Below are positions 6,799 through 62,843 of a stretch of DNA of 64,000 nt, one piece after another. Each line of letters starts with the position of its first letter. Position 1 is the first letter of the stretch. The notes under the pieces were generated by a model that was not told the origin of the DNA, searched no databases, and worked only from the letters and a program-made list of their open reading frames with translations. A program made the translations under genes and the position numbers. This DNA comes from an uncultured Gammaproteobacteria bacterium (GTDB lineage Bacteria; Patescibacteriota; Patescibacteriia; Patescibacteriales; GWC2-42-12), in the NCBI GenBank assembly GCA_964431805.1, contig CAYSKV010000004.1, positions 12,201 through 76,200 of the forward strand, given 5' to 3'.

Positions 6799-6937
6799 AT
6801 GTCATTGCGAGCGTTAGCGAAGCAATCCCACGAACAGTTAATTAAAATAAATCTTCATCGCAGAAACAATCTATTATTTTAATAAATAGTACGTGAGATT
6901 GCCGCGTCGCCTGGTCACAGGCTCCTCGCAATGACAT
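6799..6937. repeat. Extragenic palindromic element (GTCATTGCGAG...GCAATC family), two inverted units
   Basis: ATGTCATTGCGAG (6799-6811) is the exact reverse complement of CTCGCAATGACAT (6925-6937). Inner GCAATCCCACG (6822-6832) matches the reverse complement of CGTGAGATTGC (6892-6902) with one mismatch. A ~57-nt AT-rich spacer separates the units. Confidence 0.75.
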
Positions 6938-8051: not shown

Positions 8052-8080
8052 AAATTTAAATTTTCTAGGCTCGCCTTAAA

Positions 8081-8236
8081 ATATAATTTAAAATCACCAA
8101 AGGGGTTCGGGGAGTGGAGTTGGCGACAAGGCTTATAGAGATTAGATAAATCAATGTTCTAGCCAATCGGAACTCCCCGAGATTTTTTGCTTACTTTTTA
8201 GTCATAAAAAGTAAGTCCTAGCGAAGCGACACGGAT
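8081..8236 (+). ncRNA. Candidate structured RNA / repeat element, copy A (homolog of 27971-28136 on the minus strand)
   Basis: CGGGGAGT (8108-8115) pairs with ACTCCCCG (8172-8179). TTGGC (8120-8124) pairs with GCCAA (8162-8166). The 3' hairpin is CTTACTTTTT (8190-8199) / AAAAAGTAAG (8206-8215). Copy B keeps the same architecture with compensatory changes. Confidence 0.5.
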
Positions 8237-8320
8237 GTTAAATTCAGAAAAAAGTATACTATAACATTTGAATTCTTATGAATTGCTTATTTGTTAAATT
8301 TATGTAAAAATAAGAGTATT

Positions 8321-21210: not shown

Positions 21211-22542
21211 TTATTTGCACTTATTATAGCTAGTTGTCCATGGATCCCATCTTCTTGCAGTATACAAATTACAAGCAAGCTTTATATTGTTCGCTGGCGT
21301 TAATAAATAATTTGAGCAAGTAGCGTAAAGACTAGAATCTTTTTTGTAGCAATTTCTTGCTTTGCATATAGTTGTTCCTGGCCAATATTCAAGACAACAT
21401 CCTATCGATGAATTACTATTTAAGCATGTTCTACCACTAGCATATGGATTACTTGCTGGTGTATTACCTGCGACAGCGATGCCGCCAGTGCCACCAGCTC
21501 CGCCGCACTCATTTGCACCCCCATGAGAATCAATCATGTTTATTTGCCACATACCCATTGAAAAAGCACTACCATCAGCGCATAAGTCAGTAGTGCTTGG
21601 TATGGATCTACCTTGGCTTTCCCTTTGACAGACGCAAGATGCTGTTGCTGCGTCTGCTGCCATACAGGTGCCGTTAAAATTTGCTTCTACACAGTTTCCT
21701 GTACCAGTAGCAATTTTTGAGCAGCAACAATGATAGACAACGTTGCCTGAGTCAGCGGTAGTTTGTGTTCCGCATTTACTTGTTTCAGTAGATATTATTT
21801 TATTTGTGTCGCCTCCGCATATAGTATCGCCTACGCCGCCCTCAGTGCCAATAGTATCTGGGATCCAAGTGCATGCGCCAGAAATAGCCGTTTCTATTTT
21901 TTTTACTTGAGTAATTTGCAGTGGGTTAAAAACAGTTAAGGCTGGGTTTATTTGATATAGAATTAAGTAAGAACATAAAGCAATAACCAAGCCGGTTAGA
22001 GAGGCGCCAACCCAGGATTTAGCTTCACCAATCATGGTTGCGCTACCGCCGGCCACAATCCACATTACGCCGCCGATCATTAAAACCACGGCTGCTAAAA
22101 TACCAACGATGCCGATTGCATATTGATATATTCCGGCAACATATTCGCCGATCCAATTTACAGAACAGACATTTTCACCTTTATCATTAGTTTTACAAGT
22201 ACTAGGAGAAAAAGTTAAATTAGGGATTGGTATTTGCAGTTTAGGCATGGTAGTATTTAGACCAGTAGCTTTAGGTGTTGTGGTTGGAGCTGCAGTGCAA
22301 GTTGTCGACGTATCACAGCAACATTCACAATTACTTGCGCTAGTACACATAACAGGTTTTTGGGGGTTACCAGGGCAATTGTCAAAACTACATGAAATTT
22401 GTCCATAATTACTACAATGTTTATCGCCCTGTATTACAGAATAATTGCAAGCCGCTTGAGCTATAGTTGGAAAATAAAAAAGACTAAATATTAAAAATAA
22501 TAATGGTAAATAGAATATAATTTTTGTTTTTTTGGATTTCAT
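21211..22542 (-). CDS. Cys-rich exported protein: TrbC/VirB2-like pilin hairpin fused to a C-terminal lysozyme-like domain
   Basis: Signal peptide ending AQA. Two-TM hairpin AIGIVGILAAVVLMIGGVMWIVAGG...AKSWVGASLTGLVIALCSYLIL. The C-terminal domain has CQRES (E308-S309) and SMGMWQIN (aa 328-335), like the catalytic Glu-Ser and GLMQ(IN) of SLT/lysozyme folds. Confidence 0.6.
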   Translation of the reverse strand: MKSKKTKIIFYLPLLFLIFSLFYFPTIAQAACNYSVIQGDKHCSNYGQISCSFDNCPGNPQKPVMCTSASNCECCCDTSTTCTAAPTTTPKATGLNTTMPKLQIPIPNLTFSPSTCKTNDKGENVCSVNWIGEYVAGIYQYAIGIVGILAAVVLMIGGVMWIVAGGSATMIGEAKSWVGASLTGLVIALCSYLILYQINPALTVFNPLQITQVKKIETAISGACTWIPDTIGTEGGVGDTICGGDTNKIISTETSKCGTQTTADSGNVVYHCCCSKIATGTGNCVEANFNGTCMAADAATASCVCQRESQGRSIPSTTDLCADGSAFSMGMWQINMIDSHGGANECGGAGGTGGIAVAGNTPASNPYASGRTCLNSNSSIGCCLEYWPGTTICKARNCYKKDSSLYATCSNYLLTPANNIKLACNLYTARRWDPWTTSYNKCK

Positions 22543-22552
22543 AACTTAATTT

Positions 22553-23446
22553 TTAAAAAGATGCACCTCCACTTGCTTTATAACAAGAATATAGCGTTGA
22601 TGAACATGGTCTTCCTCCAGAAATTAATGCAGGTTTAGGATTAAGAGTTTGAAGAGTTGTCGCAGAATAGCATTGACCTGAACCATCACCGCACCATTCA
22701 TTCTCATTAGCTTTTCCAAAGCAATTTCCAACGCCATCACACCATCCTGATCCACTATTACAACTGTCTCCAATTTTTGATCCCGCTGTACAAACACCAA
22801 TAGAACCTATTGCTGTAATATCCGTTGTGACCGTTTGTACTGTTGTAGTTTTAAAATTCACTAACGCCGGGTTTACTGTAGCTAAAATAAAGTAAGAGCA
22901 TAAAGCTAAAAGTAAACCGGTTAAAGAGGCGCCAATCCAAGATTTGGCTTCGCCGATAGCTGTAGCATTACCGCCAGCCACAATCCACATTACGCCGCCG
23001 ATCATTAAAACTACGGCTGCTAAAATACCGACGATGCCGATAGCGTATTTATAAATTGCTCTAATGTATTGACCTATCATGGTGGTTGAGCCGTCTGGAG
23101 TATATGCTTTTCCTTTCTGGAAATCAGTACCTATCCCGACTTGGGGAGTAAAAGAAGCTTTTTTCCCGTCAGTAGATGCTGCGGCCGTAGGTGCAGCAGT
23201 AGGAGTGGTTACGTTTTCACAACAACATTCACAGTTACTTGTATCAGTACACATTGTAGGCTTAGTTTGGCTAGCGCAACTAGAAAAATCACTTAAAGTT
23301 TGTCCATAGTCACTACAGTGTTTGCTAGCTTGTATTACAGAATAATTACAAGCCGCTTGTGTTATAATAGGGAAATAAAAAATATTAATTATAAATAACA
23401 ATATTAAGGGTAAATATAGTATAATTTTTATTTTTTTTGGATTCAT
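22553..23446 (-). CDS. Cys-rich exported TrbC/VirB2-like pilin-hairpin protein (paralog of 21211-22542)
   Basis: The signal peptide and first ~50 aa, and the two-TM hairpin (AIGIVGILAAVVLMIGGVMWIVAGG...AKSWIGASLTGLLLALCSYFIL), are nearly identical to the neighbour. The Cys/Gly-rich C-terminus is different. Confidence 0.65.
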   Translation of the reverse strand: MNPKKIKIILYLPLILLFIINIFYFPIITQAACNYSVIQASKHCSDYGQTLSDFSSCASQTKPTMCTDTSNCECCCENVTTPTAAPTAAASTDGKKASFTPQVGIGTDFQKGKAYTPDGSTTMIGQYIRAIYKYAIGIVGILAAVVLMIGGVMWIVAGGNATAIGEAKSWIGASLTGLLLALCSYFILATVNPALVNFKTTTVQTVTTDITAIGSIGVCTAGSKIGDSCNSGSGWCDGVGNCFGKANENEWCGDGSGQCYSATTLQTLNPKPALISGGRPCSSTLYSCYKASGGASF

Positions 23447-27855: not shown

Positions 27856-27885
27856 TGTCATTCCGGCCGCCGAGCCGGAATCTAG
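27856..27885. repeat. GTCATT-type palindromic hairpin unit
   Basis: CTGTCATTCCGGC-CGCCGA-GCCGGAATC with an 8-bp stem at 27860-27867 / 27874-27881. It shares the TGTCATT...AATC frame with the element at 6799-6937. Confidence 0.6.
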
Positions 27886-27970
27886 AGTTCGGTGAAACAA
27901 GTTTGGTGTTATCTATTTTCTAAGTAGACAGTCTAATGAGTTTATTATACTTTTTATTAATATAATTATT

Positions 27971-28136
27971 CGTGCCGCTCCGCTAGGGGTTACTTTCTTA
28001 TAATTAAGAAAGTAACCAAAGAACTTTTGGGGTGCCTCAATGCGCTATCACTTTGATTAATTTTTTTATGCTCACACCTTGGCGCTTATTCGTCACCCCA
28101 AACCCCGGGGTGATTTTAAATATATAGTTTTATTTT
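27971..28136 (-). ncRNA. Candidate structured RNA / repeat element, copy B (homolog of 8081-8236)
   Basis: The reverse complement aligns end to end with copy A. Shared features are the 5' TTTAAAATCACC, an outer stem (GGGGTG/CACCCC versus GGGGAGT/ACTCCCC), a 3' hairpin (GTTACTTTCTT/AAGAAAGTAAC versus CTTACTTTTT/AAAAAGTAAG) and the tail CCTAGCG(G/A)AGCG(G/A)CACG. Confidence 0.5.
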
Positions 28137-34758: not shown

Positions 34759-37224
34759 ATGAATTTTACTATAATATTACCATTAATCAGCGCGATCTTA
34801 GCTATTAGCATAGGCATTTTTGTATTTAAGCAAAATAGAAAAAGTTTGATAAATCAAACTTTTTTTCTTTTTACTCTTGGTATAACGGAATGGTTTATTT
34901 GCACTTTCATGATGTTTTTATATAAAGATGATGTGGCGGGGGTAATTTTTTGGGATAGATTAGTCTATGCTGGTGTAGCATTTATGCCGGTTTTTACTTA
35001 TAAATTTTATTTAGCCTTAATTGGTAAAAAATCTGACAAAATTCTTTATGTCGGTTATTTATTATCAATAAGTTTTGCGATCCTTACACGTTCAAAATAT
35101 TTTATTGATGGTATTTATGTTTATAGCTGGGGCGTCCATACACAAGCTAGAATTCTGCACCATATATTTTTGGTGTATTTTGTAGTATTTATATTATTAT
35201 GGTTCTTCGCTACTTTAAAATTTTATAAAAGCCTTAAACCGTCATTAATTAAAGAACAAACTAAATATATATTTATATCTTTTGGCGTATTTTATTTAAT
35301 TGCGCCTCTCGGTTTTTTAGCGGCTTATAATGTAGGAGTTTATCCTGTAACATATTTTTCTGGATTAATTTTTACTATCATGATGGCTTATTGTATAGCG
35401 ATTTATCGCGTTATGGACATTAAATTAGTAATTAGAAAATCCTCCGTCTATCTCTTTTCCCTGGCCACAGTTTTAATTTTTATGACGACCGTTAAATTGA
35501 TTTCTGCTCAATTATTTACTGCTCCTCCAATTTGGATTGATTTATTGGTTCTATTAATTGCTGTTTATATTTTTTCGCCTATTAAGCATTATTACTATCG
35601 TTTAGCTAATAAATATTTCTTCTCCTCTTTGTATGATAGCCGCGAACTAATTGCTGATTTAAGCGATAAACTCCGCTCTACCATTGAAATCGGTAAAATC
35701 TATGAATATGTTTCAGAAATTTTAGTTAATGCTTTGCACGTGACCGCTTTTGGCGTTGTGTCTTTTGATGAAAAAAAACAAGTTTATATAACCCAGTATG
35801 GTCAAGGCTTAAACATCGGCCAACAAGAAATATTCCCAGGCAGTAAAGAAATATATAAAATTTTTACTAAAAGAAATCAGCCGATCATTGTTGAAGAAAT
35901 AAAATTTAGTAATTTTAAAATTAATAAGTCAATTTTAAATTTACTCACTAAAGCAAACGTCGCCCTGTTATCTCCTCTAAACATGAAAGATAAAACAGTC
36001 GGCATGATGGTATTTGGCCCTAAAGAATCCAAAGACCCTTTTAACGAAGAAGATTTAAAAGTTCTAGAAATTTTAGGCACGCAAATCGCTTTTGCCATGG
36101 AGAACGCTTTGCTCTACGCAGAATCGGTAAAATTTAATATCCAATTGAATGAAGAAAAAAATAAAATTGCGGCTATTATCGCTAACTTTATCGACCCGAT
36201 TATCTTTGTTGACCGCTATAATAATATTAACCTCATAAACCCGGCCGCTAAAAACATCCTCGGTTTAACAGAAAAAAGCTTGGGCGTAAGCATAGATACT
36301 AGCAATAATTGCCCGATGTCTAACTTCCGTACCGTCATCAAAAAAGAGTTTCAGATTAAAGAAATTGGCAATTTAAAATCAACTGATCATCATAGCGAAG
36401 AAATGTCTATTTTAGTTAATAACCAAGAATTAATTTATAAAATTACAACCATCAGGGTTTTTGATGATCAAACAAACCACCTAGGCCTCATGAAAATTTT
36501 CGTCAATCTCACCCGCGAAAAAGGCATTGATAAAATGAAATCAGAATTTATCTCTATCGCCGCCCATCAGCTAAGAACCCCATTATCAGCCATTAAATGG
36601 GTAATTAAGATGATATTAGACGGGGATGCTGGAGAACTTAATGTTGAGCAAAAAGATTTATTAAGGAAGGGCTATATTAGCAACGAAAGAATTATCAGAT
36701 TAGTTAATGATTTATTAAACGTTTCTCGTATTGAAGAAGGTAAGTTTGGATTTAATTTTGAAAAAACCGATTTTCAAGAAATTTTGACTACGACCAAAAG
36801 CAACTTAGAAGGTTTAATAGCAAAAAATCACCAAGAATTAATAGTGCAAAAACCAGAGAAACTACCTAAAGTATATCTGGACAAAGAAAGAATGGTTATG
36901 GTTTTGCAAAATTTACTTGATAATGCCATAAAATATACTCCAGAATATGGAAAAATAGAAATAATTGTTACTACCGACAAAAAATTTCTGCATGTTAAAG
37001 TTAAAGATCAAGGGGTAGGCATAAGCAAAAATGATCAAGCTAAATTATTTTCTAAATTTTTCCGAGCCTCTAATGCGCTTAAACTAGAAACCGAAGGCAG
37101 CGGATTAGGATTGTTTATAGTAAAAAATATTATTGAAAAACATAATGGTTCAATTGAATTAAAAAGCGAAGAAGGTCGAGGAACCGAAATAAGTTTTTCT
37201 TTGCCAATTGAGCAAAAACTTTAG
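34759..37224 (+). CDS. Sensor histidine kinase 1 (multi-TM sensor, GAF-like, PAS-like, HisKA, HATPase_c)
   Basis: H-box SIAAHQLRTPL, N-box LLDNAIKYTP, G-boxes DQGVGI and GSGLGL, and an N-terminal domain of about 7 TM segments. Confidence 0.9.
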   Translation: MNFTIILPLISAILAISIGIFVFKQNRKSLINQTFFLFTLGITEWFICTFMMFLYKDDVAGVIFWDRLVYAGVAFMPVFTYKFYLALIGKKSDKILYVGYLLSISFAILTRSKYFIDGIYVYSWGVHTQARILHHIFLVYFVVFILLWFFATLKFYKSLKPSLIKEQTKYIFISFGVFYLIAPLGFLAAYNVGVYPVTYFSGLIFTIMMAYCIAIYRVMDIKLVIRKSSVYLFSLATVLIFMTTVKLISAQLFTAPPIWIDLLVLLIAVYIFSPIKHYYYRLANKYFFSSLYDSRELIADLSDKLRSTIEIGKIYEYVSEILVNALHVTAFGVVSFDEKKQVYITQYGQGLNIGQQEIFPGSKEIYKIFTKRNQPIIVEEIKFSNFKINKSILNLLTKANVALLSPLNMKDKTVGMMVFGPKESKDPFNEEDLKVLEILGTQIAFAMENALLYAESVKFNIQLNEEKNKIAAIIANFIDPIIFVDRYNNINLINPAAKNILGLTEKSLGVSIDTSNNCPMSNFRTVIKKEFQIKEIGNLKSTDHHSEEMSILVNNQELIYKITTIRVFDDQTNHLGLMKIFVNLTREKGIDKMKSEFISIAAHQLRTPLSAIKWVIKMILDGDAGELNVEQKDLLRKGYISNERIIRLVNDLLNVSRIEEGKFGFNFEKTDFQEILTTTKSNLEGLIAKNHQELIVQKPEKLPKVYLDKERMVMVLQNLLDNAIKYTPEYGKIEIIVTTDKKFLHVKVKDQGVGISKNDQAKLFSKFFRASNALKLETEGSGLGLFIVKNIIEKHNGSIELKSEEGRGTEISFSLPIEQKL
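35438..36636 (+). repeat. Identical segment shared by the two kinase genes (copy 1)
   Basis: 35438-36582 is identical base for base to 37956-39100 (offset 2518; I compared every line). There are two mismatches at 36583 and 36585, then identity to 36636. Confidence 0.95.
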
Positions 37225-37255: not shown

Positions 37256-39748
37256 ATGAATTTACAAAATTTTTTATCACTAAATGGTCTTTTAACCGGA
37301 ATCATAGCCGCTGTTTTTGGTTTCATGGTTATTTTTAAAGATCGAAAAAATATTATTAATCAAACCCTTTTTGGCCTAACTATGACTACCGCTCTTTGGC
37401 AACTTGGTTATTGGCGTTGGTTAATGATTTATGATAATCAAGATTTAGCTTTATTTTGGTGTCGAGTTTTATCAGTCGGTTCTCATTTTCTCGCAGTTTT
37501 TTATTTTCATTGGATTGTTTCTTTGTTGGGTTTGAATAAACAGAAAAAAAAGCTTATTTTTGTTTCTTATTTTGTAGCTGGTATTTTTTTGTTTTTTATT
37601 TTTTCCCCTTGGTTTGTCAGTAGTGTTGAGCCCGTCGGAAATTATTTTGCTTTTTGGCCTAAAGCCGGTTTTTTATATTCTATTTACATAGTTTTAATGT
37701 TTTTGGGTTTAGCTCCTTATGCTCTTTTTTTACTTTTCAGACATTATAAAAAATCTGTTGGTCAAAAAAGAAATCAAATAAAATATGTTATTATTGCCAC
37801 AATTCTCGCTTTTGGTGGGGGAGAAACTAATTTTCCTCTTTGGTATGATATTCCTATATTGCCCATAGGAAATGTATTAGTCGTGTTATATCCAATTCTT
37901 TTTTCTTATGCAATTATTAGACATCGTTTAATGGATATAAAGTTTGTTTTACGCCAATCCTCCGTCTATCTCTTTTCCCTGGCCACAGTTTTAATTTTTA
38001 TGACGACCGTTAAATTGATTTCTGCTCAATTATTTACTGCTCCTCCAATTTGGATTGATTTATTGGTTCTATTAATTGCTGTTTATATTTTTTCGCCTAT
38101 TAAGCATTATTACTATCGTTTAGCTAATAAATATTTCTTCTCCTCTTTGTATGATAGCCGCGAACTAATTGCTGATTTAAGCGATAAACTCCGCTCTACC
38201 ATTGAAATCGGTAAAATCTATGAATATGTTTCAGAAATTTTAGTTAATGCTTTGCACGTGACCGCTTTTGGCGTTGTGTCTTTTGATGAAAAAAAACAAG
38301 TTTATATAACCCAGTATGGTCAAGGCTTAAACATCGGCCAACAAGAAATATTCCCAGGCAGTAAAGAAATATATAAAATTTTTACTAAAAGAAATCAGCC
38401 GATCATTGTTGAAGAAATAAAATTTAGTAATTTTAAAATTAATAAGTCAATTTTAAATTTACTCACTAAAGCAAACGTCGCCCTGTTATCTCCTCTAAAC
38501 ATGAAAGATAAAACAGTCGGCATGATGGTATTTGGCCCTAAAGAATCCAAAGACCCTTTTAACGAAGAAGATTTAAAAGTTCTAGAAATTTTAGGCACGC
38601 AAATCGCTTTTGCCATGGAGAACGCTTTGCTCTACGCAGAATCGGTAAAATTTAATATCCAATTGAATGAAGAAAAAAATAAAATTGCGGCTATTATCGC
38701 TAACTTTATCGACCCGATTATCTTTGTTGACCGCTATAATAATATTAACCTCATAAACCCGGCCGCTAAAAACATCCTCGGTTTAACAGAAAAAAGCTTG
38801 GGCGTAAGCATAGATACTAGCAATAATTGCCCGATGTCTAACTTCCGTACCGTCATCAAAAAAGAGTTTCAGATTAAAGAAATTGGCAATTTAAAATCAA
38901 CTGATCATCATAGCGAAGAAATGTCTATTTTAGTTAATAACCAAGAATTAATTTATAAAATTACAACCATCAGGGTTTTTGATGATCAAACAAACCACCT
39001 AGGCCTCATGAAAATTTTCGTCAATCTCACCCGCGAAAAAGGCATTGATAAAATGAAATCAGAATTTATCTCTATCGCCGCCCATCAGCTAAGAACCCCA
39101 CTCTCAGCCATTAAATGGGTAATTAAGATGATATTAGACGGGGATGCTGGAGAATTGTCTCTGGAACAACAAGAACTATTAAACAAAGGTTATCTAAGCA
39201 ACGAACGAGTTATTAGGTTAGTTAACGACCTATTGAACGTTTCTCGTATTGAAGAAGGCAAATTTGGGTTTAATTTTGAGAGCACTGATTTTAAAGAAGT
39301 TCTAGACACTTCCATTAGTAATATTGATAGTTTAATTGATAAAAGCCATCAAGAGCTCAAGATTGAAATCCCGCCAAAACTACCCAAGATATATTTAGAT
39401 AAAGAAAGAATCATTATGGTAATACAAAATTTATTAAGTAATGCCATCAAATATACTCCAGAATATGGTAAGATTGAAGTAATTATTAAAGTTGACAAGC
39501 AGTACCTGAATGTTAAAATTAAAGACCAGGGGGTAGGCATACCGGCCGAAGATCAGCCAAAAATATTTTCTAAATTTTTCCGAGCGGCTAATGTGGTTAA
39601 ATTAGAAACCGAAGGCAGCGGACTAGGCCTCTTTATGGTTAAAAACATCATCGAAAAACATAAGGGCCAAGTCAGTTTAAAAAGCGAAGAAGGCAAAGGC
39701 ACGGAAGTTAGTTTTACTTTGCCGATAAATGGAATGATTAGTTTATAA
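37256..39748 (+). CDS. Sensor histidine kinase 2 (paralog of 34759-37224)
   Basis: Same domain order as kinase 1. The N-terminal TM sensor is only weakly similar, the core is identical, and the catalytic domain is moderately diverged. Confidence 0.9.
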   Translation: MNLQNFLSLNGLLTGIIAAVFGFMVIFKDRKNIINQTLFGLTMTTALWQLGYWRWLMIYDNQDLALFWCRVLSVGSHFLAVFYFHWIVSLLGLNKQKKKLIFVSYFVAGIFLFFIFSPWFVSSVEPVGNYFAFWPKAGFLYSIYIVLMFLGLAPYALFLLFRHYKKSVGQKRNQIKYVIIATILAFGGGETNFPLWYDIPILPIGNVLVVLYPILFSYAIIRHRLMDIKFVLRQSSVYLFSLATVLIFMTTVKLISAQLFTAPPIWIDLLVLLIAVYIFSPIKHYYYRLANKYFFSSLYDSRELIADLSDKLRSTIEIGKIYEYVSEILVNALHVTAFGVVSFDEKKQVYITQYGQGLNIGQQEIFPGSKEIYKIFTKRNQPIIVEEIKFSNFKINKSILNLLTKANVALLSPLNMKDKTVGMMVFGPKESKDPFNEEDLKVLEILGTQIAFAMENALLYAESVKFNIQLNEEKNKIAAIIANFIDPIIFVDRYNNINLINPAAKNILGLTEKSLGVSIDTSNNCPMSNFRTVIKKEFQIKEIGNLKSTDHHSEEMSILVNNQELIYKITTIRVFDDQTNHLGLMKIFVNLTREKGIDKMKSEFISIAAHQLRTPLSAIKWVIKMILDGDAGELSLEQQELLNKGYLSNERVIRLVNDLLNVSRIEEGKFGFNFESTDFKEVLDTSISNIDSLIDKSHQELKIEIPPKLPKIYLDKERIIMVIQNLLSNAIKYTPEYGKIEVIIKVDKQYLNVKIKDQGVGIPAEDQPKIFSKFFRAANVVKLETEGSGLGLFMVKNIIEKHKGQVSLKSEEGKGTEVSFTLPINGMISL
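37956..39154 (+). repeat. Identical segment shared by the two kinase genes (copy 2)
   Basis: See 35438-36636. Even the antisense 73-aa track ORFs (35877-36098 and 38395-38616) are identical. Confidence 0.95.
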
Positions 39749-55642: not shown

Positions 55643-55767
55643 AAAAATTTTTATAATTTCTAATTTTTAATTTCTAAATAATATATTAATTTTTAAATTG
55701 GAAATTAATTAATTGAAAATTGTTTGAAAATTTGAAATTGAGAATTGAAAATTATTAAGTGTTTTTC

Positions 55768-58700
55768 ATGAATAAAATTAGAATAAAAAAAGTATTGTTT
55801 ATTTTTTGTTTATTAGTTGCAGTTTTTGCTGTGGCTCATTTTGCTTTAGCCGCTGACCTTAATGTTGGTTTAGATAAGGCGGCTGGCACTGGATTAGGGG
55901 ATACTGATCCGAGGATTATTGCGGCTAGAATTATCCGAATATTTTTAGGCTTTTTAGGAATTATCGCGGTTAGTTTAGTAATGTATGCTGGCTGGATGTA
56001 TATGACGGCCGAAGGCGATTCGGAAAAAGTTGAAAAAGCTAAAAAAATATTAATTGGCGCTTTAATTGGTTTAGTAATTTGTCTGGCTTCGTTCGCGATC
56101 GCCAGTTTTATTTTAAATAGTTTATTAGACGCGACCGGCGCGCAGGATAATACTGGCGGTGGCGGTGGCGGCACAATAACGCCAGGTGGCGGTATTCCAA
56201 ATTTACCAGGAGAAGGCGAGCCATGTTTAACTAATCCTTTAGATACCCAATGCGCCGCCGGACAATGCGCCGCCGGTTTAAATTGCTCTCAGAGCGATTG
56301 TTTATGTAAAAAAACTAACCAACCAGGAGAAGGAGAAAGTTGCGACGGCGATACTAAGGTCGACGGTTGTCAAGCGATTGACTGCGCTAATAATTTAATT
56401 TGTTCATCATCAGATAATTGTACTTGCATTAAAACTCCTTTGATTGCTTGGGTAAGCCCGATGGACGCTTCAAGCACGCCTAATGGAGCAGTTGGTAATT
56501 TTATAACCATCGGCGGCAGATATTTTGGCACGACGACCGGCCAGGTAGTTTTTATGGGTGATCCTAATAATGCTAATGATGATAAAGTTGCGACTTTTCC
56601 AAATTTAATTAATCCATTATGTTTAAGTTTTTGGCAGGATGATCAGATTATAGTTGTTGTGCCAGACGGAGCGGTTAATGGTCCGATTAAAGTGATTGAT
56701 AGTAAAAATCGTTACGACACCACGGATGATAATCGCGGCGCGCGCATTAATGATTTTGTGGTAAATAGTATTAAGCGCCCTGGCCTTTGCCAAGTCGATC
56801 CATCAAGCGGCGGTTTAGCCGATCCATTTAACTTACAAGGTAATTCTTTTAATCTCACGCCTCATTCGGTTTTGTTTGGTAAAGAGACTAGCGCCATAGA
56901 AGCTAATAATATAAAAAATTGGACTAATACTTCGGTTGATGCTGTTGTGCCAAACATTGTTGATGGAAGAAACTCTATATTTGTTAAAACCGGTGATGTT
57001 TATTCTAATTCCTTGTCTTTTTCAGTTGTCAATAAAACTGATACTAATCCGGTGATTGAATATATTGAACCGGATAAAGGTCCTTCAGGACAATACATAA
57101 CAATTTACGGCCGTAATTTTCAAATTTATAACGCGCAGAAAAGCGCAGTGAAATTTTATTTGCCGGCCGATCCGAATAATAAAATTAATGCGGACATTGA
57201 TTTTCCCGCAGCTTGTAAAAGTACTTGGTGGCACGATACTTATATTGTCGTTAAAGTGCCTAAGGTAAATAGTTTAGGAGATTATAAAGTTGAAGTTACT
57301 AATTCTTACGATAAAACTAGTTTGCCGGCTGATTTTGTAATTAATAATGAAACGCCAACCCCAGGCCTTTGCGCCCTAGATCCTAATAATGGTCCGATCG
57401 GTTGGCCGATGTCGGCTTATGGCGAAAGATTTGGCGCTACCCAAGGCAGCGGGCGCGCTCAATATTTTAATAATAAAGATGCAACCGCTAGTAGTTGGGC
57501 TGATGGAAAAGTTAATACTAATGTGCCGGCTCAGTCGGTTAGCGGTCCATTTAGAATAATTGATAACCAAGGTTATATTAGTAATTCGTTGCCTTTTAGA
57601 GTTGGTAAATGTTCTTCTAATGCTGATTGTGATAGTAGCGAGGAATGTTGTGGTGGCGGAACTTATTGGTCAGGCATCTGCCGTCCAGCCGGGACTTGTA
57701 ATCAAGGTGCGCCTTTAGGTTGCGGTTTTGGTTGGACCTTTTCTACTAAAGCTGGTGATTGCGCCATCACTCAACAAAAGTGCGACATTCCTAATCCGCC
57801 CGCCGGCAGTACAATAACTTTTAATTGTTGCGCGCCCGGACAATGCAATGCTTATACTGGGCAATGCGATAGCTGTCCGGTTAATAAACCTGATATGTGC
57901 GATGGCGATTTAAAATGTTGTTCGACTGGCGGTTGTATAGATCTAGATAATGATGGTAAGACTGAATGTTCTGACGGCGAAGCTTGCTCGCAATATGGTT
58001 TAAGTCAATGTTCAAGCAGTTATTTCTGTCCGAACTCTCCAGGAAAATGTTCGACTTATGGCGGCGGCGGCACGATTGAAACCGGCGATTGCGATTTTAG
58101 CTGTAATAATTTTAGCGCTTGCAAAACTGATTTGTGCGAATATAGATCAGGTATAAATAAATGTATTAAAAAGAGTCAGACTTGCAGTTTATCTAAAACT
58201 GTTAGTTATAATGTTGGTTTAACTCCAGCTACGGCTACGGCCGAATGCTCGGCTTACGACGGTGGCAATCGTTGGATTATGAAAATCAGCACTTCTTGCC
58301 CGGCTGGTTGGACTAGCATAAGCGGCGGTCGTTGCGTAGAAAATAATACAACTTGTTCAATTTGCGATACTGGCTTTAAATGTTTAAAAGAAACGGCCAG
58401 CGCGGTTGATGGCGGTTGTTTTATCGATCAAAATGTTTGCCAAGTTGGTTCAGCCTGCAGTAGCAGCAATAAATGTATTAAAAGCGATAGCGCTAGCTGC
58501 GAATGTTGCTGCCGTATTGGTCATGATAGCGAGGACTGCTGTTCACCTTTAAAATGCGAAGGCAAATGCGGTAGCGATATAACCGCTAATACTAATACTT
58601 ACGGACGTTGTTCTGGTTGCGCCAGCGTTGGCACAACCCAAGCCGACCATAATGAAGCTTGCAACTGCTCCGGCACTAGCGGTAAATTTTGTTTAGTTGA

Positions 58701-61170
58701 TGCGGCTAACCCGAGCGGCGTTTGCCAAGACTGCGCGCAGATAAGCGACGCGGCGCTTTGCAGTAATCAAGGCGTTGGCACTTGCTGCGTTGATGCTAAA
58801 AATAAAAATGCTTGCCGCGGCGGTACAGCTCCATACGCTAGCGGCAGCCCATCTTATAATTATTGCGGTTATTATGAATGTAATAATGGTAGCTGTTCCG
58901 GCACGCCAGTAGCCACTTCGACAGTTTTAAGTTATAAAACTTTAACTGAATGCAGTAATAAGTGTACGACTCCGCCTCAATTTGGCAATACCTGTTTTAG
59001 TAGCGCCACCACAACGCAAAGCTGTGATATTAATAAGTGTACCGGCTTTGCTTGTATTAACGCAGATGGCACAGGCCCAGCGGCTCCAAATTGCGGTACC
59101 TGCTGCTGCGATCCTTTTGCTACTATTGATAATTGTAAAAATTTAAATCCTAACTTAACTTGTAAACCTAACCAAGCGCCTTGTAGCGGTAGTAGCCGCG
59201 GCCTTTGCTGCGGTTGTTCCGCGGATAGCGATTGCGGTAGCGTAACTGGTTGCGGGACTGATACTTGCTGTCATGCCAGGCCGACCGTGATTGAAACTGT
59301 GCCGGCGGATGGAGCTACTAATGTTTGCCGCAATGGTTTAATTAAAGCTACATTTGACCAAGCCATGCAAACCGATACTTTTAAAGAAAATGTGATTGTG
59401 GTTGGGGATTACGGGCTTGATAAATGTCCGACCGGAACTAAATATTTAACTGAAGCTTATAAACCGGGTTTGTTTGAAAAATTAACTTATTGGTTAGCGA
59501 GGCTGCCTTTATTAGATAAGATTTTTATAAATCAAGCGAAAGCTTTAACTGGAAATTTCTGCGCGGTTACCGGATCGATTAGCGGTTATGCGGCAGGCAA
59601 CACAACTGTCATGGAATTTAAAACGAAAAAAGCTTTAGAGGCCGGTAGAAAATATTATGTTATTATAAAAGGCGATAGTAATTTAAATGATGCGGTTGCC
59701 GTCGGAGTTTTAAGCGAATCGGGCGTTGGCCTAGGCCAGTCATCCACCGAGTCATTTAACGGTGTTAATTTCACCGGTAAAATTTGGTCGTTTACTACTA
59801 AAGAAAGTACGGCCACTGATAACGGCATTTGTTTAGTTTCTTCGGTCGCGATTGATCCTTCAAGTTATTTATTTAATACTGCTACTAATGATTCGGCCGA
59901 TGATAATGTCGGAACAAATTATGATACGATTAGGGACAGCGATAAAGTTTTTTATTCAACGGCTTATTCTTCGGAAAAACAACCGATCATTCCAATTGAA
60001 AGTCTTTATAATTGGCAGTGGAATTGGAATATAGATAATAAAGCAGTTGTGAAATTTAAAAATGGCGAGAATGCGCTGGATAATAGTTCAACTCAGACTT
60101 TAGTTGCGCAAAATGTTAAAGAAGCTAATACTTTGCTTCATGCCAAACTTACTATTACTCAAGATGAAGTTAATAAAATATCAACTATCGGCCAATCTAA
60201 AGAAAAAACTGCTCCGGTTTATGTTTTCTTATGTTCTAATCCTTGGCCGTCGTTTAAAACTGATGGCACCTGGGAGCCTTGGCAAGATGCTGCTGGAAAT
60301 TGCATATCTGCATCCGGTGATTGTTCGGCTACTAATTTTGAATTATATTATTGCCGTGACGCTGGGGCTGAAGGCACAGCTGATGATTTACCGGCTATTA
60401 TAAGTGATAAAGCAGTAATCAGGGGCCAAAATTTGAAATGCGATGACGGAACTGGTAGTTGTTTGGGTAAAGCTAAAAATGACACATGTAATGATGGTAG
60501 TGGAAAATGTCAAGTGGATATAGTAAAAGAATTTTATTTCTTTAGAGAAAATATGCCTAACGTAGCGGGCGTGAATTTAACTACTAGAGTTAACGATGAA
60601 GTGCAGCAGGGCGGTAAAGCCGGGTTAGTTTGGCAGGCAGTTACTATACCAGCGGGCGAAGAATTAGATAAATATTTAATTTATTATGGCACTAGGTCAG
60701 GAAATTATGAACAGTCAATTTTTACGGCTGAGCCAGGTTCAATTAATAACCCGGCGATCGTTAATAATTTAACTAACGGAGTAAAATATTATTTTGCCGT
60801 GACCGCTAGATATAAAAGCGGAGCCGAAAGCATTTATTCAAATGAAACTAGTTTCACTCCGGCCGATAATTGGGCGCCATTAACTCCAGTAGATTTTATT
60901 GGCGAAGCCGATCAGGGGCAAGCTAAACTTGAATGGCTTGCCAATCAAGACGATACGACAATTTATAAAGTTTATTATGGTGCTACTAGCGGTTCTTTGG
61001 CTGCGTCGGTTAATTTAGAAAAAAAGAAATGTTCTGCCGCTAGCGGAAAATGTACTCTTACTATAGATGAGTTATCCGCCGGCACTACTTATTATTTTGC
61101 CGTGACCGCTCTAGACCTTAAAGGCAATGAGAGCAATAAATCAGCTGAAATTAATTTATTAATTTTATAA
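55768..61170 (+). CDS. Giant (~1800 aa) Cys-rich surface protein with an N-terminal pilin hairpin, IPT/TIG-like, Ig-like and FN3-like domains
   Basis: ATG 55768 (MNKIRIKK) is preferred over GTG 55759. Hairpin FLGFLGIIAVSLVMYAGWMYMTAEGDSEKVEKAKKIL. Two tandem Cys-knot-like repeats (GEGEPC... and GEGESC...). Four IPT-like repeats. A ~560-aa Cys-dense region at nt ~57600-59280. Two C-terminal FN3-like repeats (YYFAVTA twice). Confidence 0.7.
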   Translation: MNKIRIKKVLFIFCLLVAVFAVAHFALAADLNVGLDKAAGTGLGDTDPRIIAARIIRIFLGFLGIIAVSLVMYAGWMYMTAEGDSEKVEKAKKILIGALIGLVICLASFAIASFILNSLLDATGAQDNTGGGGGGTITPGGGIPNLPGEGEPCLTNPLDTQCAAGQCAAGLNCSQSDCLCKKTNQPGEGESCDGDTKVDGCQAIDCANNLICSSSDNCTCIKTPLIAWVSPMDASSTPNGAVGNFITIGGRYFGTTTGQVVFMGDPNNANDDKVATFPNLINPLCLSFWQDDQIIVVVPDGAVNGPIKVIDSKNRYDTTDDNRGARINDFVVNSIKRPGLCQVDPSSGGLADPFNLQGNSFNLTPHSVLFGKETSAIEANNIKNWTNTSVDAVVPNIVDGRNSIFVKTGDVYSNSLSFSVVNKTDTNPVIEYIEPDKGPSGQYITIYGRNFQIYNAQKSAVKFYLPADPNNKINADIDFPAACKSTWWHDTYIVVKVPKVNSLGDYKVEVTNSYDKTSLPADFVINNETPTPGLCALDPNNGPIGWPMSAYGERFGATQGSGRAQYFNNKDATASSWADGKVNTNVPAQSVSGPFRIIDNQGYISNSLPFRVGKCSSNADCDSSEECCGGGTYWSGICRPAGTCNQGAPLGCGFGWTFSTKAGDCAITQQKCDIPNPPAGSTITFNCCAPGQCNAYTGQCDSCPVNKPDMCDGDLKCCSTGGCIDLDNDGKTECSDGEACSQYGLSQCSSSYFCPNSPGKCSTYGGGGTIETGDCDFSCNNFSACKTDLCEYRSGINKCIKKSQTCSLSKTVSYNVGLTPATATAECSAYDGGNRWIMKISTSCPAGWTSISGGRCVENNTTCSICDTGFKCLKETASAVDGGCFIDQNVCQVGSACSSSNKCIKSDSASCECCCRIGHDSEDCCSPLKCEGKCGSDITANTNTYGRCSGCASVGTTQADHNEACNCSGTSGKFCLVDAANPSGVCQDCAQISDAALCSNQGVGTCCVDAKNKNACRGGTAPYASGSPSYNYCGYYECNNGSCSGTPVATSTVLSYKTLTECSNKCTTPPQFGNTCFSSATTTQSCDINKCTGFACINADGTGPAAPNCGTCCCDPFATIDNCKNLNPNLTCKPNQAPCSGSSRGLCCGCSADSDCGSVTGCGTDTCCHARPTVIETVPADGATNVCRNGLIKATFDQAMQTDTFKENVIVVGDYGLDKCPTGTKYLTEAYKPGLFEKLTYWLARLPLLDKIFINQAKALTGNFCAVTGSISGYAAGNTTVMEFKTKKALEAGRKYYVIIKGDSNLNDAVAVGVLSESGVGLGQSSTESFNGVNFTGKIWSFTTKESTATDNGICLVSSVAIDPSSYLFNTATNDSADDNVGTNYDTIRDSDKVFYSTAYSSEKQPIIPIESLYNWQWNWNIDNKAVVKFKNGENALDNSSTQTLVAQNVKEANTLLHAKLTITQDEVNKISTIGQSKEKTAPVYVFLCSNPWPSFKTDGTWEPWQDAAGNCISASGDCSATNFELYYCRDAGAEGTADDLPAIISDKAVIRGQNLKCDDGTGSCLGKAKNDTCNDGSGKCQVDIVKEFYFFRENMPNVAGVNLTTRVNDEVQQGGKAGLVWQAVTIPAGEELDKYLIYYGTRSGNYEQSIFTAEPGSINNPAIVNNLTNGVKYYFAVTARYKSGAESIYSNETSFTPADNWAPLTPVDFIGEADQGQAKLEWLANQDDTTIYKVYYGATSGSLAASVNLEKKKCSAASGKCTLTIDELSAGTTYYFAVTALDLKGNESNKSAEINLLIL

Positions 61171-61184
61171 TTTAATAAAATTTT

Positions 61185-61838
61185 ATGTTTGACGAATTAG
61201 ATAAAAACAATCCGGTTCCGACCGGAAATTTTAAACCAGCCGGACCAGCGCCAGCAAAAGCCGAAGATATTTTTTCCGAAGTTGATAATTCTGTTAAACC
61301 AGAAGTCTTTAGGCCAAAAATTAACGATCCGATGGCTATACCGGATACAGTAATACCAGCGGAAACCACTTGGTTAAAAAACAAAGGTTTGATTTTTGGT
61401 TTAGTTATTGGCGGCTTAATTATTATTTTTGGCGGTTTTATTATTTTAAAATTAATGATTAAAGATGATGCGACGGTTGCGCCAGTTAAAGAAGAAGCAC
61501 AAAATACTCAAACCCAAACCCCAACTCAAGAAGTTACCGAACCGATGGAAGAAGAAGTTGCTACTTCCACTAATCAATTAACTCAGCCGATAGTTACTGA
61601 GCCGCTTGATACTGATTTAGATGGTTTAACCGATGAAGAAGAAGGCAGTCTTAGAACTGATATTAATAGTTCGGATACTGATCAAGATGGTTTAACTGAT
61701 CGCGAGGAAGTAAAAGTTTATAGCACAGATCCTTTACAAGCTGATACTGACGGCGATGGTTATTCGGACGGTGAAGAAGTTAAAAACGGTTTTAACCCAA
61801 GTGGCGAGGGCAAACTCTTAGATATTAATAATCAATAA
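61185..61838 (+). CDS. Membrane-anchored protein with thrombospondin type-3-like Asp-rich Ca-binding repeats
   Basis: One central TM segment. DTDLDGLTDEEE, DTDQDGLTDREE, DTDGDGYSDGEE. Confidence 0.65.
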   Translation: MFDELDKNNPVPTGNFKPAGPAPAKAEDIFSEVDNSVKPEVFRPKINDPMAIPDTVIPAETTWLKNKGLIFGLVIGGLIIIFGGFIILKLMIKDDATVAPVKEEAQNTQTQTPTQEVTEPMEEEVATSTNQLTQPIVTEPLDTDLDGLTDEEEGSLRTDINSSDTDQDGLTDREEVKVYSTDPLQADTDGDGYSDGEEVKNGFNPSGEGKLLDINNQ

Positions 61839-61844
61839 AATAAT

Positions 61845-62843
61845 ATGTTTGGTTTTTTTAAAAAAGAAAAAATAGAAAAGATTGAAACTATCGGTGAAAA
61901 AAAATCCGCGGCTGCTTTAAAAGAGCAAGTTAATGTTGATAATATAGATGTTCATGTTATGCCAGATCGTTTTCGCAATCAACCAATTAAGCAGCATAGC
62001 GCTAAAACTACTGGTCTAATAATAATTATTGGCGGCGGGGTATTTTTAGTAGTGCTTTCGGCGGTTTTATATTATTTTCTGTTTAAAAAACCAAGCGTAA
62101 CTATTAATCAGGAACCGTCTATAATTAAAGAAGAAAATAAACCCACTCAAGAGAATAATCAAATCAATCAAAATTTAGCTGCAACCGGAACCGAATCAAC
62201 GCTTTTACCGATAAGTTCTGAAGCGGCGACCACAACCGTTGCTACTACAACCGAAGAAATTATGGAAGAGACAGATAATCTTGCTTTAAGTTTTGGGCAA
62301 GATAGCGACAATGATGGTTTAACTGATATGGAAGAAACTATTTTAAGCAGTAGCACTTCCACGCCTGACACTGACGGCGATGGTTATCTCGACGGTTCAG
62401 AATTAGGAAATTTATACAATCCAGCCGGCGAAGGTAAAATAACCGCTAATTCAAACATCGTGCTTTATGAAAATAAAACTTTTTCTTACGATTTGTTTTA
62501 TCCGGCGATTTGGCAAACTAGCGTTAACGGCGGGGATGATTCGTTGATGTTTAAAACCAGCGATAACCAATTTGTGCAAATAATCGTTCAGCCTAACGTT
62601 AATAAACAAACGCTTGATGACTGGTATATAGAACAGCTTGGCGTTATCGCTATTAACGAAGCTGATAGAATGAGCGGCGGAAATTGGCAGGGCATTAAAA
62701 GCCCGGATGGTTTAAACATTTATTTAATGAATGAAAAACAGAGTTATATATTTAATTTAACTTATAGTCCGGGCGAAAATAAAATTTTACAATATTTTAA
62801 TATTTTTCAGATGATGGTTAAATCGTTTAATTTAAAAAATTAA
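61845..62843 (+). CDS. Membrane-anchored protein with Asp-rich Ca-binding repeats and a C-terminal globular domain
   Basis: One TM segment. DSDNDGLTDMEE and DTDGDGYLDGSE. C-terminal domain of ~140 aa with no recognised family. Confidence 0.6.
   Translation: MFGFFKKEKIEKIETIGEKKSAAALKEQVNVDNIDVHVMPDRFRNQPIKQHSAKTTGLIIIIGGGVFLVVLSAVLYYFLFKKPSVTINQEPSIIKEENKPTQENNQINQNLAATGTESTLLPISSEAATTTVATTTEEIMEETDNLALSFGQDSDNDGLTDMEETILSSSTSTPDTDGDGYLDGSELGNLYNPAGEGKITANSNIVLYENKTFSYDLFYPAIWQTSVNGGDDSLMFKTSDNQFVQIIVQPNVNKQTLDDWYIEQLGVIAINEADRMSGGNWQGIKSPDGLNIYLMNEKQSYIFNLTYSPGENKILQYFNIFQMMVKSFNLKN

Follow-up and report, generated by a model that had tools for sequence, protein, structure and literature searches.

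A 64,000 nt stretch of Patescibacteria DNA (contig CAYSKV010000004.1; hereafter the window) carries two diverged copies of a structured intergenic element, copy A at 8085-8237 on the plus strand and copy B at 27967-28122 on the minus strand, and no third. Together with about 55 relatives these copies define a family whose members covary in three helices, in a pseudoknot and in a base pair that ties the 3' hairpin to an almost invariant 3' tag. Our tentative reading of the comparative evidence is that each copy may be an independently transcribed small structured RNA gene of about 135 nt, in which a pseudoknot/triplex 3' domain and the tag would form the functional core.

Two copies in one window

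The element was first noticed from sequence alone. The original prediction had placed the copies at 8081-8236 (plus strand) and 27971-28136 (minus strand) and had proposed that they align end to end; both were found there, and the alignment was obtained. They share the expected 5' start, TTTAAAATCACC (8087-8098, plus; 28109-28120, minus), and the expected 3' end, CCTAGCGRAGCGRCACG (8217-8233, plus; 27971-27987, minus). This 17 nt tag has two matches in the window, compared with 0.11 expected by chance. Each of the named helices is also present in both of its forms: the outer stem as CGGGGAGT/ACTCCCCG in copy A and GGGGTG/CACCCC in copy B, the second stem as TTGGC/GCCAA and GCGC/GCGC, and the 3' hairpin as CTTACTTTTT/AAAAAGTAAG and GGTTACTTTCTT/AAGAAAGTAACC, including the T-A to C-G swap. 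The copies were thus located correctly, but the extent given for them was slightly short, as a promoter-like block beyond the tag, and about 95 nt more in copy B, prove to be repeated too.

A covariance model was built as proposed and searched against the 64 kb with filters off; it returned exactly copies A and B, at 173 and 142 bits, with the next hit at 15 bits. Folded as single sequences, the copies only modestly outperform their shuffled counterparts (z of -2.3 and -2.4), and for this reason two copies alone are insufficient proof of structure. That proof is supplied by the family alignment.

Relatives in Patescibacteria

About 55 distinct relatives were gathered by pattern scans, all of them in Patescibacteria metagenome-assembled genomes (MAGs) and metagenomes. 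Scanning a genome collection with the tag gave 118 matches, mostly chance occurrences in GC-rich genomes, and full-length relatives in five Patescibacteria MAGs. A more specific scan of metagenomes gave 55 loci (designated below by L numbers), of which 54 are real. The MAGs that carry the element are exclusively those of Patescibacteria, some of them mislabelled Gammaproteobacteria, and homologues of the RuvA encoded in the window are named Candidatus Falkowbacteria or Patescibacteria. The covariance model (R1, whose E-values are rough) added two copies missed by the tag scan, L063(+) and L178(-), both with degenerate tags. Because the relatives were gathered by means of the exact tag, the true range and diversity of the family are underestimated. 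The scanned loci measure up to about 20 kb each and are not whole genomes; within them copy number is low, at 0-1 per locus of 14-20 kb, and the window has 2 in 64 kb.

A fold supported by covariation

The structure alignment comprises the 43 members of standard length. RNAalifold and a mutual-information scan agree on an outer stem (P1), a second stem with a variable loop (P2) and a 3' hairpin (P3). P1, UUCGGGGAGU/ACUCCCCGAG, includes three covarying pairs, namely 25:98 (CG/UA), 30:93 (GC/UA/AU) and 31:92 (UA/GC). The strongest pair of the alignment is formed by the base that follows P3 and the first variable position of the tag, whose form is otherwise invariant (CCUAGCG-N-AGCG-N-CACG). This tag pair is Watson-Crick in every one of the 43 sequences (UA 23, CG 15, GC 5; zero exceptions). 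A further covarying pair links column 100, in the linker between P1 and P3, to column 124 of the P3 loop (AU 23, GC 19, one exception), and it extends into a 4 bp pseudoknot of GACU with AGUC. The original prediction included neither the pseudoknot nor the tag pair, and the covariation that it had claimed therefore reaches beyond the helices it described.

Under the full model, 92.6% of cells in the 43 sequences are paired, and sliding the partners lowers this to 33-50%. The alignment has a covariation score of 0.209; shuffled versions score 0.102, and not one of 500 attains the real value. Mapped onto a neighbour-joining tree, the tag pair shows at least 7 switches, both bases changing together every time; for pairs 30:93 and 31:92 there are 7-8, and for the pseudoknot pair 3. 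Judged by the alignment, this covariation demonstrates P1, P2, P3, an H-type pseudoknot and the tag pair as the predicted fold of the family. It had been argued that the copies represent a functional RNA or single-stranded DNA (ssDNA) structure rather than a decaying repeat, and this view is strengthened by compensatory changes in every named helix among the approximately 55 relatives, as well as by orthologues that evolve more slowly than neighbouring third codon positions (see below).

Extra GC-rich hairpins, in the members that carry them, are placed only in L3 (after pseudoknot strand S1b), in the middle of the linker, or in place of the central domain, and they leave the pseudoknot strands intact. 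In the closest relatives at the ruvA site, L142 and L175, two GC-rich hairpins replace the central domain. Chimeras of an A-type 5' domain and a B-type 3' domain exist, and L063(+) and L178 are intact apart from their tags.

Several further pairings were tried and rejected. Pairing of the spacer past the tag with the central loop is equally stable for a copy's own spacer and for mismatched ones (-4.34 vs -4.31 kcal/mol; p=0.47). Pairings of the tail CACG with a central CGUG, and of UCACC in the leader with GGUGA, are not conserved across types and give no mutual-information signal. An alternative P1 formed from the first G-run misfits in polarity and in its flanking bases.

Possible triple helices

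The linker past the pseudoknot strand reads UUUU when the P3 tract is UUUUU/AAAAAG, and UCUUU when the tract is UUUCUU/AAGAAAG; loop L1 gains one nucleotide and a C exactly with the extra C:G pair. The linker C comes to lie opposite the P3 G when the linker is set parallel to the purine strand, as expected for U.A-U and C+.G-C major-groove triples. This pattern suggests that the U-rich linker may occupy the major groove of P3, forming a triplex within the H-type pseudoknot. The arrangement is suggestive only, because the signal rests on two haplotypes of one linked segment.

A second relationship is found at the 5' end, where GGGG-UUY-GGGG reads as a mirror repeat. Copies with five Gs in the P1 run also have five in run 1, and an A precedes run 1 whenever an A follows the P1 run (13 of 13). 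No alternative helix accounts for this mirror covariation. It would be explained by a third strand on P1, of the purine-motif type if the forward strand is read and forming canonical C+.G-C/U.A-U triples if the reverse strand is.

Flanking modules and a related family

The conserved region opens about 14 nt ahead of G-run 1, at TTNAAAATCACC, with a -10-like hexamer followed by a C-rich stretch. Past the tag comes a semi-conserved RAUG (RATG in DNA) and then an AT-rich stretch that varies in sequence but not in length, and in many non-orthologous copies a block GTATAC-TAnAAT-RTTYRAAT lies 21-22 nt beyond the tag. The promoter-like block of copy A falls within the segment that is missing at the empty ruvA site of L179. 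Copy B and many relatives additionally carry a hairpin ending AAUAGAUAA and, beyond it, between one and three hairpins that read GGATTCC..GGAATGACA or GAGATTGC..GCAATGACA. This companion module is kept, with compensatory changes, in L008, L106, L167, L083, L117, L072 and others. The part of it at 27909-27950 (minus strand), which has equivalents in about 20 loci, could be a separate small transcript.

The dRS3 repeat of the neisserial intergenic mosaic elements (NIME) is defined as ATTCCC-N8-GGGAAT (PMC1797815). Hairpins that fit this consensus exactly are present in fourteen Patescibacteria-type loci. They occur downstream of many copies and flank the element on both sides in L166. For the majority of copies they are one-sided or missing, and we saw no arrays. 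Hairpins resembling repetitive extragenic palindromes (REP) lie just past stop codons in the window, at 6800-6830 (minus), 6897-6936 (plus) and 27856-27882 (minus), and also in L124, L134, L139, L147, L164, L169, L171, L173 and others, many as exact dRS3 fits. The reverse complement of some of these contains AGCGAAGCGAC, the same 11-mer as the tag. There are also mini GC-rich palindromes (CCTGCCTGCSSCAGGCAGG, CCCGCCCGTACCGAACGGTACGTTCGGGCGGG and CCCGCCCGCCTCGCAAGCGAAGCGTTGCGGGCGCGG) inside the loops of different AT-rich modules, and their sharing between such modules suggests insertion of tiny, loop-targeting hairpins.

A further family, which we term C-type, is set apart by its body, which has a long P1 (an outer stem of about 20 bp) and internal CCCGAGCGAAGC motifs. 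It ends in AUUUUUG, a hairpin with U and A tracts and then C-CCGAGCG-G-AGCG, and a 3' module of U-run, hairpin and tag is therefore common to the C-type and the A and B types. Full C-type elements stand head to head with A-type elements in L016, L072, L165 and L168, and the A/C pair is inverted relative to the same sugar-transferase gene between L016 and L072. Except for a C-type remnant of 15-18 nt, the window holds no further A/B- or C-type copy.

Selection and insertion

The core of copy B is 90-92% identical to that of its orthologues in L106, L167 and L008, and the companion module is 85% identical between orthologues. In the flanking genes of the same orthologues, third codon positions are 69-81% identical and first and second positions 93-99.6%. 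That the core is more similar than third codon positions points to purifying selection. Identity between paralogues of one genome is only about 70%, and orthologues cluster by locus.

The ruvA site is empty in L179, L181, L178, L180 and L183, whose RuvA proteins are 73-84% identical. Another site, between a small gene and a gene encoding an S1 domain, is filled in L178 only. The insert in L178 is about 157 nt long and lies exactly between the stop codon and the -35 element of the next promoter, with no inverted repeats and no clear duplication. These empty orthologous sites, together with the inverted A/C pairs, imply that the unit occasionally moves or is exchanged and is then retained.

Searches against known RNAs and mobile elements

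Rfam 15, which had been suggested as a check, has no family that reaches its gathering threshold anywhere in the 64 kb; in 15 related loci only tRNAs do. At E<=10 there was nothing credible over either copy, and ARAGORN found no tRNA or tmRNA in the element searches. The Rfam families that the element does not match include tRNA, tmRNA, SRP, 6S, RNase P, riboswitches, ribozymes and HEARO, so these searches bear out the initial impression that the element matches no known RNA class. The window as a whole (1-64000) contains no tRNA, rRNA or other Rfam RNA. Searches with blastn against phage and plasmid records gave no matches, and a viral origin was dismissed because the tag matches in viral contigs are chance occurrences in GC-rich coding DNA. 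A literature search for a described RNA of this type from the candidate phyla radiation (CPR) found none. We conclude that the family is undescribed and, as far as sampled, confined to Falkowbacteria-like Patescibacteria.

Terminal inverted repeats are absent from the element, its ends TTNAAAATCACC and ..AGCGNCACG not being complementary. Comparison of filled with empty sites gave no clear target-site duplication, a weak negative because it involves two sites only. A miniature inverted-repeat transposable element (MITE) was rejected on these grounds and for want of many near-identical copies; the prospect raised at the outset, of a many-copy repeat with inverted repeats and target duplications and no covariation, does not describe this family, which covaries. 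Look-alikes of a kink-turn and of group II intron domain V misfit in sequence on inspection. A sigma-54 reading of GGCACG in copy B was also discarded, as there is no -12 element and most copies carry GCGUCACG.

Genomic context and strand

Neighbouring genes could be resolved for about 43 copies. Of these, 24 are antisense to both flanking genes, 7 lie between convergent genes, about 10 precede a gene on the same strand, and none lies between divergent genes. Typically, 15-50 nt separate the 5' end of the element from the start codon side of a divergent neighbour. In L173 a tRNA gene (2078-2148, plus) begins about 25 nt from the 5' end of the element (1870-2053, minus), and with back-to-back starts so close the tRNA promoter must overlap the element leader.

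The genes beside the element are housekeeping genes with no relation to one another; ruvA, prfA, xth, secA, groEL and tRNA genes are examples. Among 131 flanking open reading frames (ORFs) and 143 Pfam families no family recurs beyond orthologues, and the 25 most frequent neighbour families listed include no transposase, reverse transcriptase or TnpB. The other proteins encoded in the window are ordinary. Such unrelated neighbours and mixed orientations largely rule out a riboswitch-like role and, among the families listed, a linked partner gene.

Several features favour the forward strand, on which G:U pairs outnumber A.C oppositions in the pseudoknot and P2. Only on this strand do the -10-like leader and the promoter-like block read as promoters, and only here does the logic of the linker/P3 triples fit. 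Minimum free energy is about 2.7 kcal/mol better on the forward strand once the leader is removed. Folding energy and inserted GC hairpins are nearly symmetric between the strands, however, and neither permits a strand call. GC skew is positive over the whole window, even where genes are on the minus strand, and copies A and B are consequently opposite in orientation relative to replication.

Proposed explanation and its rivals

If each copy is a small RNA gene, as we tentatively propose, transcription would start at the first G-run, from the -10-like TAAAAT with its C-rich discriminator CACC, which keeps a fixed distance to the invariant G. By the covariation, P1 closes the variable central domain that contains P2. 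The linker GACU then pairs with AGUC of the P3 loop to form the H-type pseudoknot, and the base after P3 with the variable base in the tag, while the U-rich linker might settle in the A:U groove of P3 through U.A-U triples, with C+.G-C in the B-type, to give a compact 3' domain. This domain, common to the C-type, may stabilize or define the 3' end of the RNA, and could present the tag for recognition by a protein or nucleic acid that is encoded at another locus. As the clade evolved, the unit has spread by copying to new intergenic sites, in many cases along with an outward promoter-like block, and has since been kept under purifying selection. An improbable extension of this proposal is that the family represents a class of mobile small-RNA genes in CPR, with two triple-helix clamps, one made by a G-run or C-run on P1 and the other by the U-rich linker in the groove of P3, an invariant tail common to at least two RNA families and an unlinked protein partner, the RNA serving as guide or scaffold or being mobilized by a retro- or ssDNA route.

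A number of observations weigh against a small RNA gene. Across the family there is no conserved -35 element upstream of the leader, and our scans found no intrinsic (Rho-independent) terminator in the element or after the tag; the U-run of P3 sits 5' of its stem, with none on the 3' side, and a terminator-like hairpin occurs in B-type copies only, on the reverse strand at the leader. About three quarters of the copies are antisense to the gene on their 3' side. By consensus folding energy the reverse complement does as well or slightly better, the mirror covariation may be more naturally read as C+.G-C and U.A-U triples on that strand, and the linker triplex signal is carried by only two haplotypes of a linked segment. 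Finally, selfish repeats typically show such empty orthologous sites and such a mosaic of neighbouring dRS3/REP-like hairpins and mini-palindromes.

In another reading, unlikely in our judgement, the element is a non-autonomous mobile or mosaic DNA module resembling NIME, REP or PATE, whose folded ssDNA would be recognized by a recombinase or transposase encoded elsewhere. Its structure would then be there for mobilization and not for a role as RNA. Vacant ruvA and S1-gene sites, copies in unrelated housekeeping intergenic regions, chimeras of A- and B-type, the inversion of A/C pairs between L016 and L072 and exact dRS3-consensus hairpins, which adjoin copies in 13 of the Patescibacteria loci scanned with the element model, all speak for such a module. 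Absence of terminal inverted repeats and target duplications would fit ssDNA (HUH/Y1) transposition, and both triplex motifs, like GCGAAGC mini-hairpins, are familiar features of DNA. Low copy number argues the other way, as do old, diverged paralogues and orthologues under purifying selection with compensatory change, which are unlike recently active MITEs; the frequent neighbour families listed supply no transposase, reverse transcriptase or TnpB, and the opposite orientation of copies A and B under uniform GC skew leaves no strict replication-strand rule. The context and mirror covariation could instead reflect an RNA domain of the reverse strand, in the 3' untranslated region or inter-cistronic region of the upstream gene, acting as a 3'-end stabilizer or unconventional terminator. 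A 3'-proximal C-run would fold onto the G:C pairs of P1 as C+.G-C and U.A-U triples, and the RNA would end at GGUGAUUUU. The tag-side gene converges on the element in 31-33 of about 43 copies, which puts the element 35-175 nt past a stop codon, and the L178 copy begins immediately past the stop codon and runs to just short of the next -35. On this strand the G/G and A/A mirror covariation would represent canonical pyrimidine-motif triples, the B-type would have a 7 bp GC hairpin followed by UUUU, and consensus folding energy is slightly better. We nevertheless doubt this reading, and rate it as rather improbable, because about 10 copies (copy A among them) are oppositely oriented, before ruvA, prfA, secA and others, and the A-type lacks a terminator-like hairpin. 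The coupled change of U to C in L1 and of U:A to C:G in P3 fits a triplex only on the forward strand, where alone the promoter-like block and -10-like leader read as promoters, and the G:U wobbles of the pseudoknot would become C.A mismatches.

The element could be a guide-RNA-like scaffold, analogous to the TnpB reRNA or omegaRNA and serving an RNA-guided protein encoded elsewhere, with the approximately 13-17 nt past the tag as a 3' guide. Its architecture is like that of the ISDra2 TnpB reRNA (PMC11844463), with a pseudoknot domain that has a putative triplex, a conserved tail and then a variable stretch of constant length, and it enters new sites with neither inverted repeats nor target duplications. 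What makes this quite improbable is that no tnpB, iscB or cas gene stands beside the approximately 55 copies, among the 25 most frequent families listed, or in the window, that a conserved block at fixed distance bounds the variable stretch, as would not be expected of a transposon flank, and that several copies (including L178 and L063(+)) have no variable stretch followed by the block. A self-cleaving ribozyme in the 3' domain, releasing the RNA at or near the tag, would account for the many invariant unpaired nucleotides beside the pseudoknot, for dispersed copies with no gene association, and for the lack of a terminator between the tag and the next promoter; with no match to an Rfam ribozyme model and a degenerate tag in the otherwise intact L063(+) and L178, we consider it very improbable. 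A cis-regulatory leader or riboswitch for the downstream gene is suggested by copy A and some relatives, which precede a co-oriented ruvA or prfA, but orientation and context largely refute it: most copies have no downstream gene on their strand, those genes that do lie downstream are functionally unrelated, and the promoter-like block intervenes between element and gene.

Features of the two copies

The features recognized in and around copies A and B, with the C-type loci and those of the mini-palindromes, are collected in Table 1.

Table 1. Positions of element features in the window and of associated modules in related loci.
Feature	Position	Strand	Remarks
C-type partner remnant, 5' strand	8058-8075	-	minus-strand reading GGCGAGCCTAGAAAATTT; relatives carry C-type head to head with A-type
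Copy A leader TTTAAAATCACC	8087-8098	+	-10-like TAAAAT, then C-rich CACC; ends 3 nt before first G-run; near-invariant in family
Copy A G-run 1 (GGGG)	8102-8105	+	UUC joins it to P1; mirror repeat with P1 G-run
Copy A P1 5' strand TCGGGGAGT	8107-8115	+	partner 8172-8180; three covarying pairs in family
Copy A P2	8120-8166	+	TTGGC 8120-8124 with GCCAA 8162-8166, around variable central loop
Copy A P1 3' strand ACTCCCCGA	8172-8180	+	covariation in family
Copy A linker	8181-8189	+	pseudoknot strand S1a GATT 8181-8184; U-rich L1 TTTTG 8185-8189
Copy A P3 hairpin CTTACTTTTT/AAAAAGTAAG	8190-8215	+	loop AGTCAT holds pseudoknot strand S1b AGTC, 8200-8203
Copy A 3' tag T-CCTAGCG-A-AGCG-A-CACG	8216-8233	+	T8216 pairs with A8224
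Promoter-like block GTATAC-TATAAC-ATTTGAAT	8254-8273	+	20 nt past copy A tag; upstream of ruvA (ATG 8321)
Copy B leader TTTAAAATCACC	28109-28120	-	22 nt between its end and ATG 28143 (+) of divergent xth
Copy B G-run 1, P1 and P2	28026-28106	-	G-run 28103-28106; P1 28094-28101 with 28027-28034
Copy B P2	within 28026-28106	-	28082-28087 with 28039-28045, variable loop
Copy B linker and P3 GGTTACTTTCTT/AAGAAAGTAACC	27988-28025	-	S1a AGTT 28022-28025; L1 CTTT 28018-28021; loop AATTAT
Copy B 3' tag C-CCTAGCG-G-AGCG-G-CACG	27971-27988	-	C27988 pairs with G27980
Copy B downstream companion module	27856-27950	-	abuts stop of convergent gene (27843)
Companion module parts, copy B	promoter-like block 27931-27950; hairpin ending AAUAGAUAA 27909-27929	-	conserved in relatives
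Companion module dRS3/REP-like hairpin GATTCCGGC..GCCGGAATGACA	27856-27882	-	copy B
C-type loci	L001 1410-1650; L016 19-375; L072 4411-4620	-; -; +	3' module shared with A and B types
C-type loci	L162 5095-5203; L165 673-816; L168 13598-13738	-; +; +	3' module shared with A and B types
Mini-palindrome loci	L129, L142, L143, L145, L147, L151, L166, L167, L173, L174		loops of element and REP-like hairpins

Other observations in the window

Two tandem paralogous genes of about 820 codons occupy 34759-37224 and 37256-39748. A 300 nt segment of the one (35405-35704) is 96% identical to the corresponding segment of the other (37923-38222), their other segments being at most 80% identical, and gene conversion may have occurred here. 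A pair of adjacent paralogous ORFs on the minus strand (21211-22542 and 22553-23446) shares several segments of 70-80% identity; the 442 amino acid ORF has no Pfam domain. An ORF of 1803 amino acids lies in a region of raised GC content at 55759-62843 (0.40-0.43 vs about 0.34), and downstream of it are genes with repeated GATACTGAT..GATGGT units that encode Asp-rich, calcium-binding-like repeats.

Significance and comparison with known systems

Patescibacteria have tiny, tightly packed genomes and, to our knowledge, almost no characterized non-coding RNAs beyond the universal ones. The element family is under selection and yet has repeatedly entered intergenic sites beside essential genes. A family that is conserved and yet newly inserted points either to an unrecognized RNA function or to a new route of spread and domestication in reduced genomes. 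Should the family be a class of mobile small RNAs, it would be the first such system described in Patescibacteria, and if the 3' module shared with the C-type is a stability or recognition cassette, it would exemplify a reusable principle. The covariance model provides a handle for metatranscriptome mapping, pull-downs and structure probing.

Some features of the element recall H-type pseudoknots with major-groove U.A-U triples, which are found in the telomerase RNA core, the SAM-II and preQ1-II riboswitches and the MALAT1 and PAN ENE. It has a U-rich strand 5' of a helix with a 3' A-tract, loop-linker pairing and a U-to-C change that goes with U:A to C:G, as isosteric triples would lead one to expect, but differs in having no sequence or model similarity to them and a context that is not that of a riboswitch, and its triplex is a predicted one. 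In the manner of paralogous bacterial small-RNA families, there are diverged paralogues in each genome, and different 5' bodies (A/B vs C) share a 3' module; in contrast to those families, this module is not a Rho-independent terminator and the family acquires units at new loci.

In architecture, the TnpB reRNA comes closest. In ISDra2 this RNA consists of a 5' scaffold of about 116 nt, which contains stems, a pseudoknot and a triplex, and a variable region at its 3' side (PMC11844463). The element would likewise combine a scaffold of about 115-150 nt, with stems, a pseudoknot and a putative triplex, with a 3' variable stretch, and it is carried by DNA that inserts with neither inverted repeats nor target duplications. 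Unlike the reRNA, it has no adjacent tnpB or tnpA among the listed families, no linkage to tnpB and no sequence or Rfam match, its variable stretch is bounded by a promoter-like block, and its orthologues are stably inherited. IS200/IS605-derived PATE elements are characterized by subterminal hairpins, by the lack of inverted repeats and target duplications, by insertion beside a fixed tetra- or pentanucleotide and by a biased orientation relative to replication. Compared with these, the picture is mixed: the missing inverted repeats and duplications would fit, P3 lies 18 nt from the end of the tag, RATG is semi-conserved past the tag, and copies A and B are in opposite orientation under a uniform GC skew.

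Other short, structured and dispersed intergenic repeats, some with promoters, include REP/BIME and the MITE-type Correia, ERIC and RPE elements, from which this one differs in its few diverged copies, its lack of inverted repeats and target duplications, and the compensatory evolution of a fold that is not palindromic. In genomic terms the closest analogue is the neisserial RS/dRS3 mosaic. Its RS units (50-150 bp between dRS3 repeats) are of similar size, form a mosaic of intergenic modules and vary in presence between relatives, whereas here we see single units in low copy, with no arrays and no regular hairpin flanks on both sides; we know of no report of covariation-supported pseudoknots in RS units. 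The element is of an already known kind, a dispersed structured intergenic element or orphan non-coding RNA, and what is unusual about it is the combination of a covariation-supported pseudoknot, probable triplexes and a 3' module common to two families, in a CPR host.

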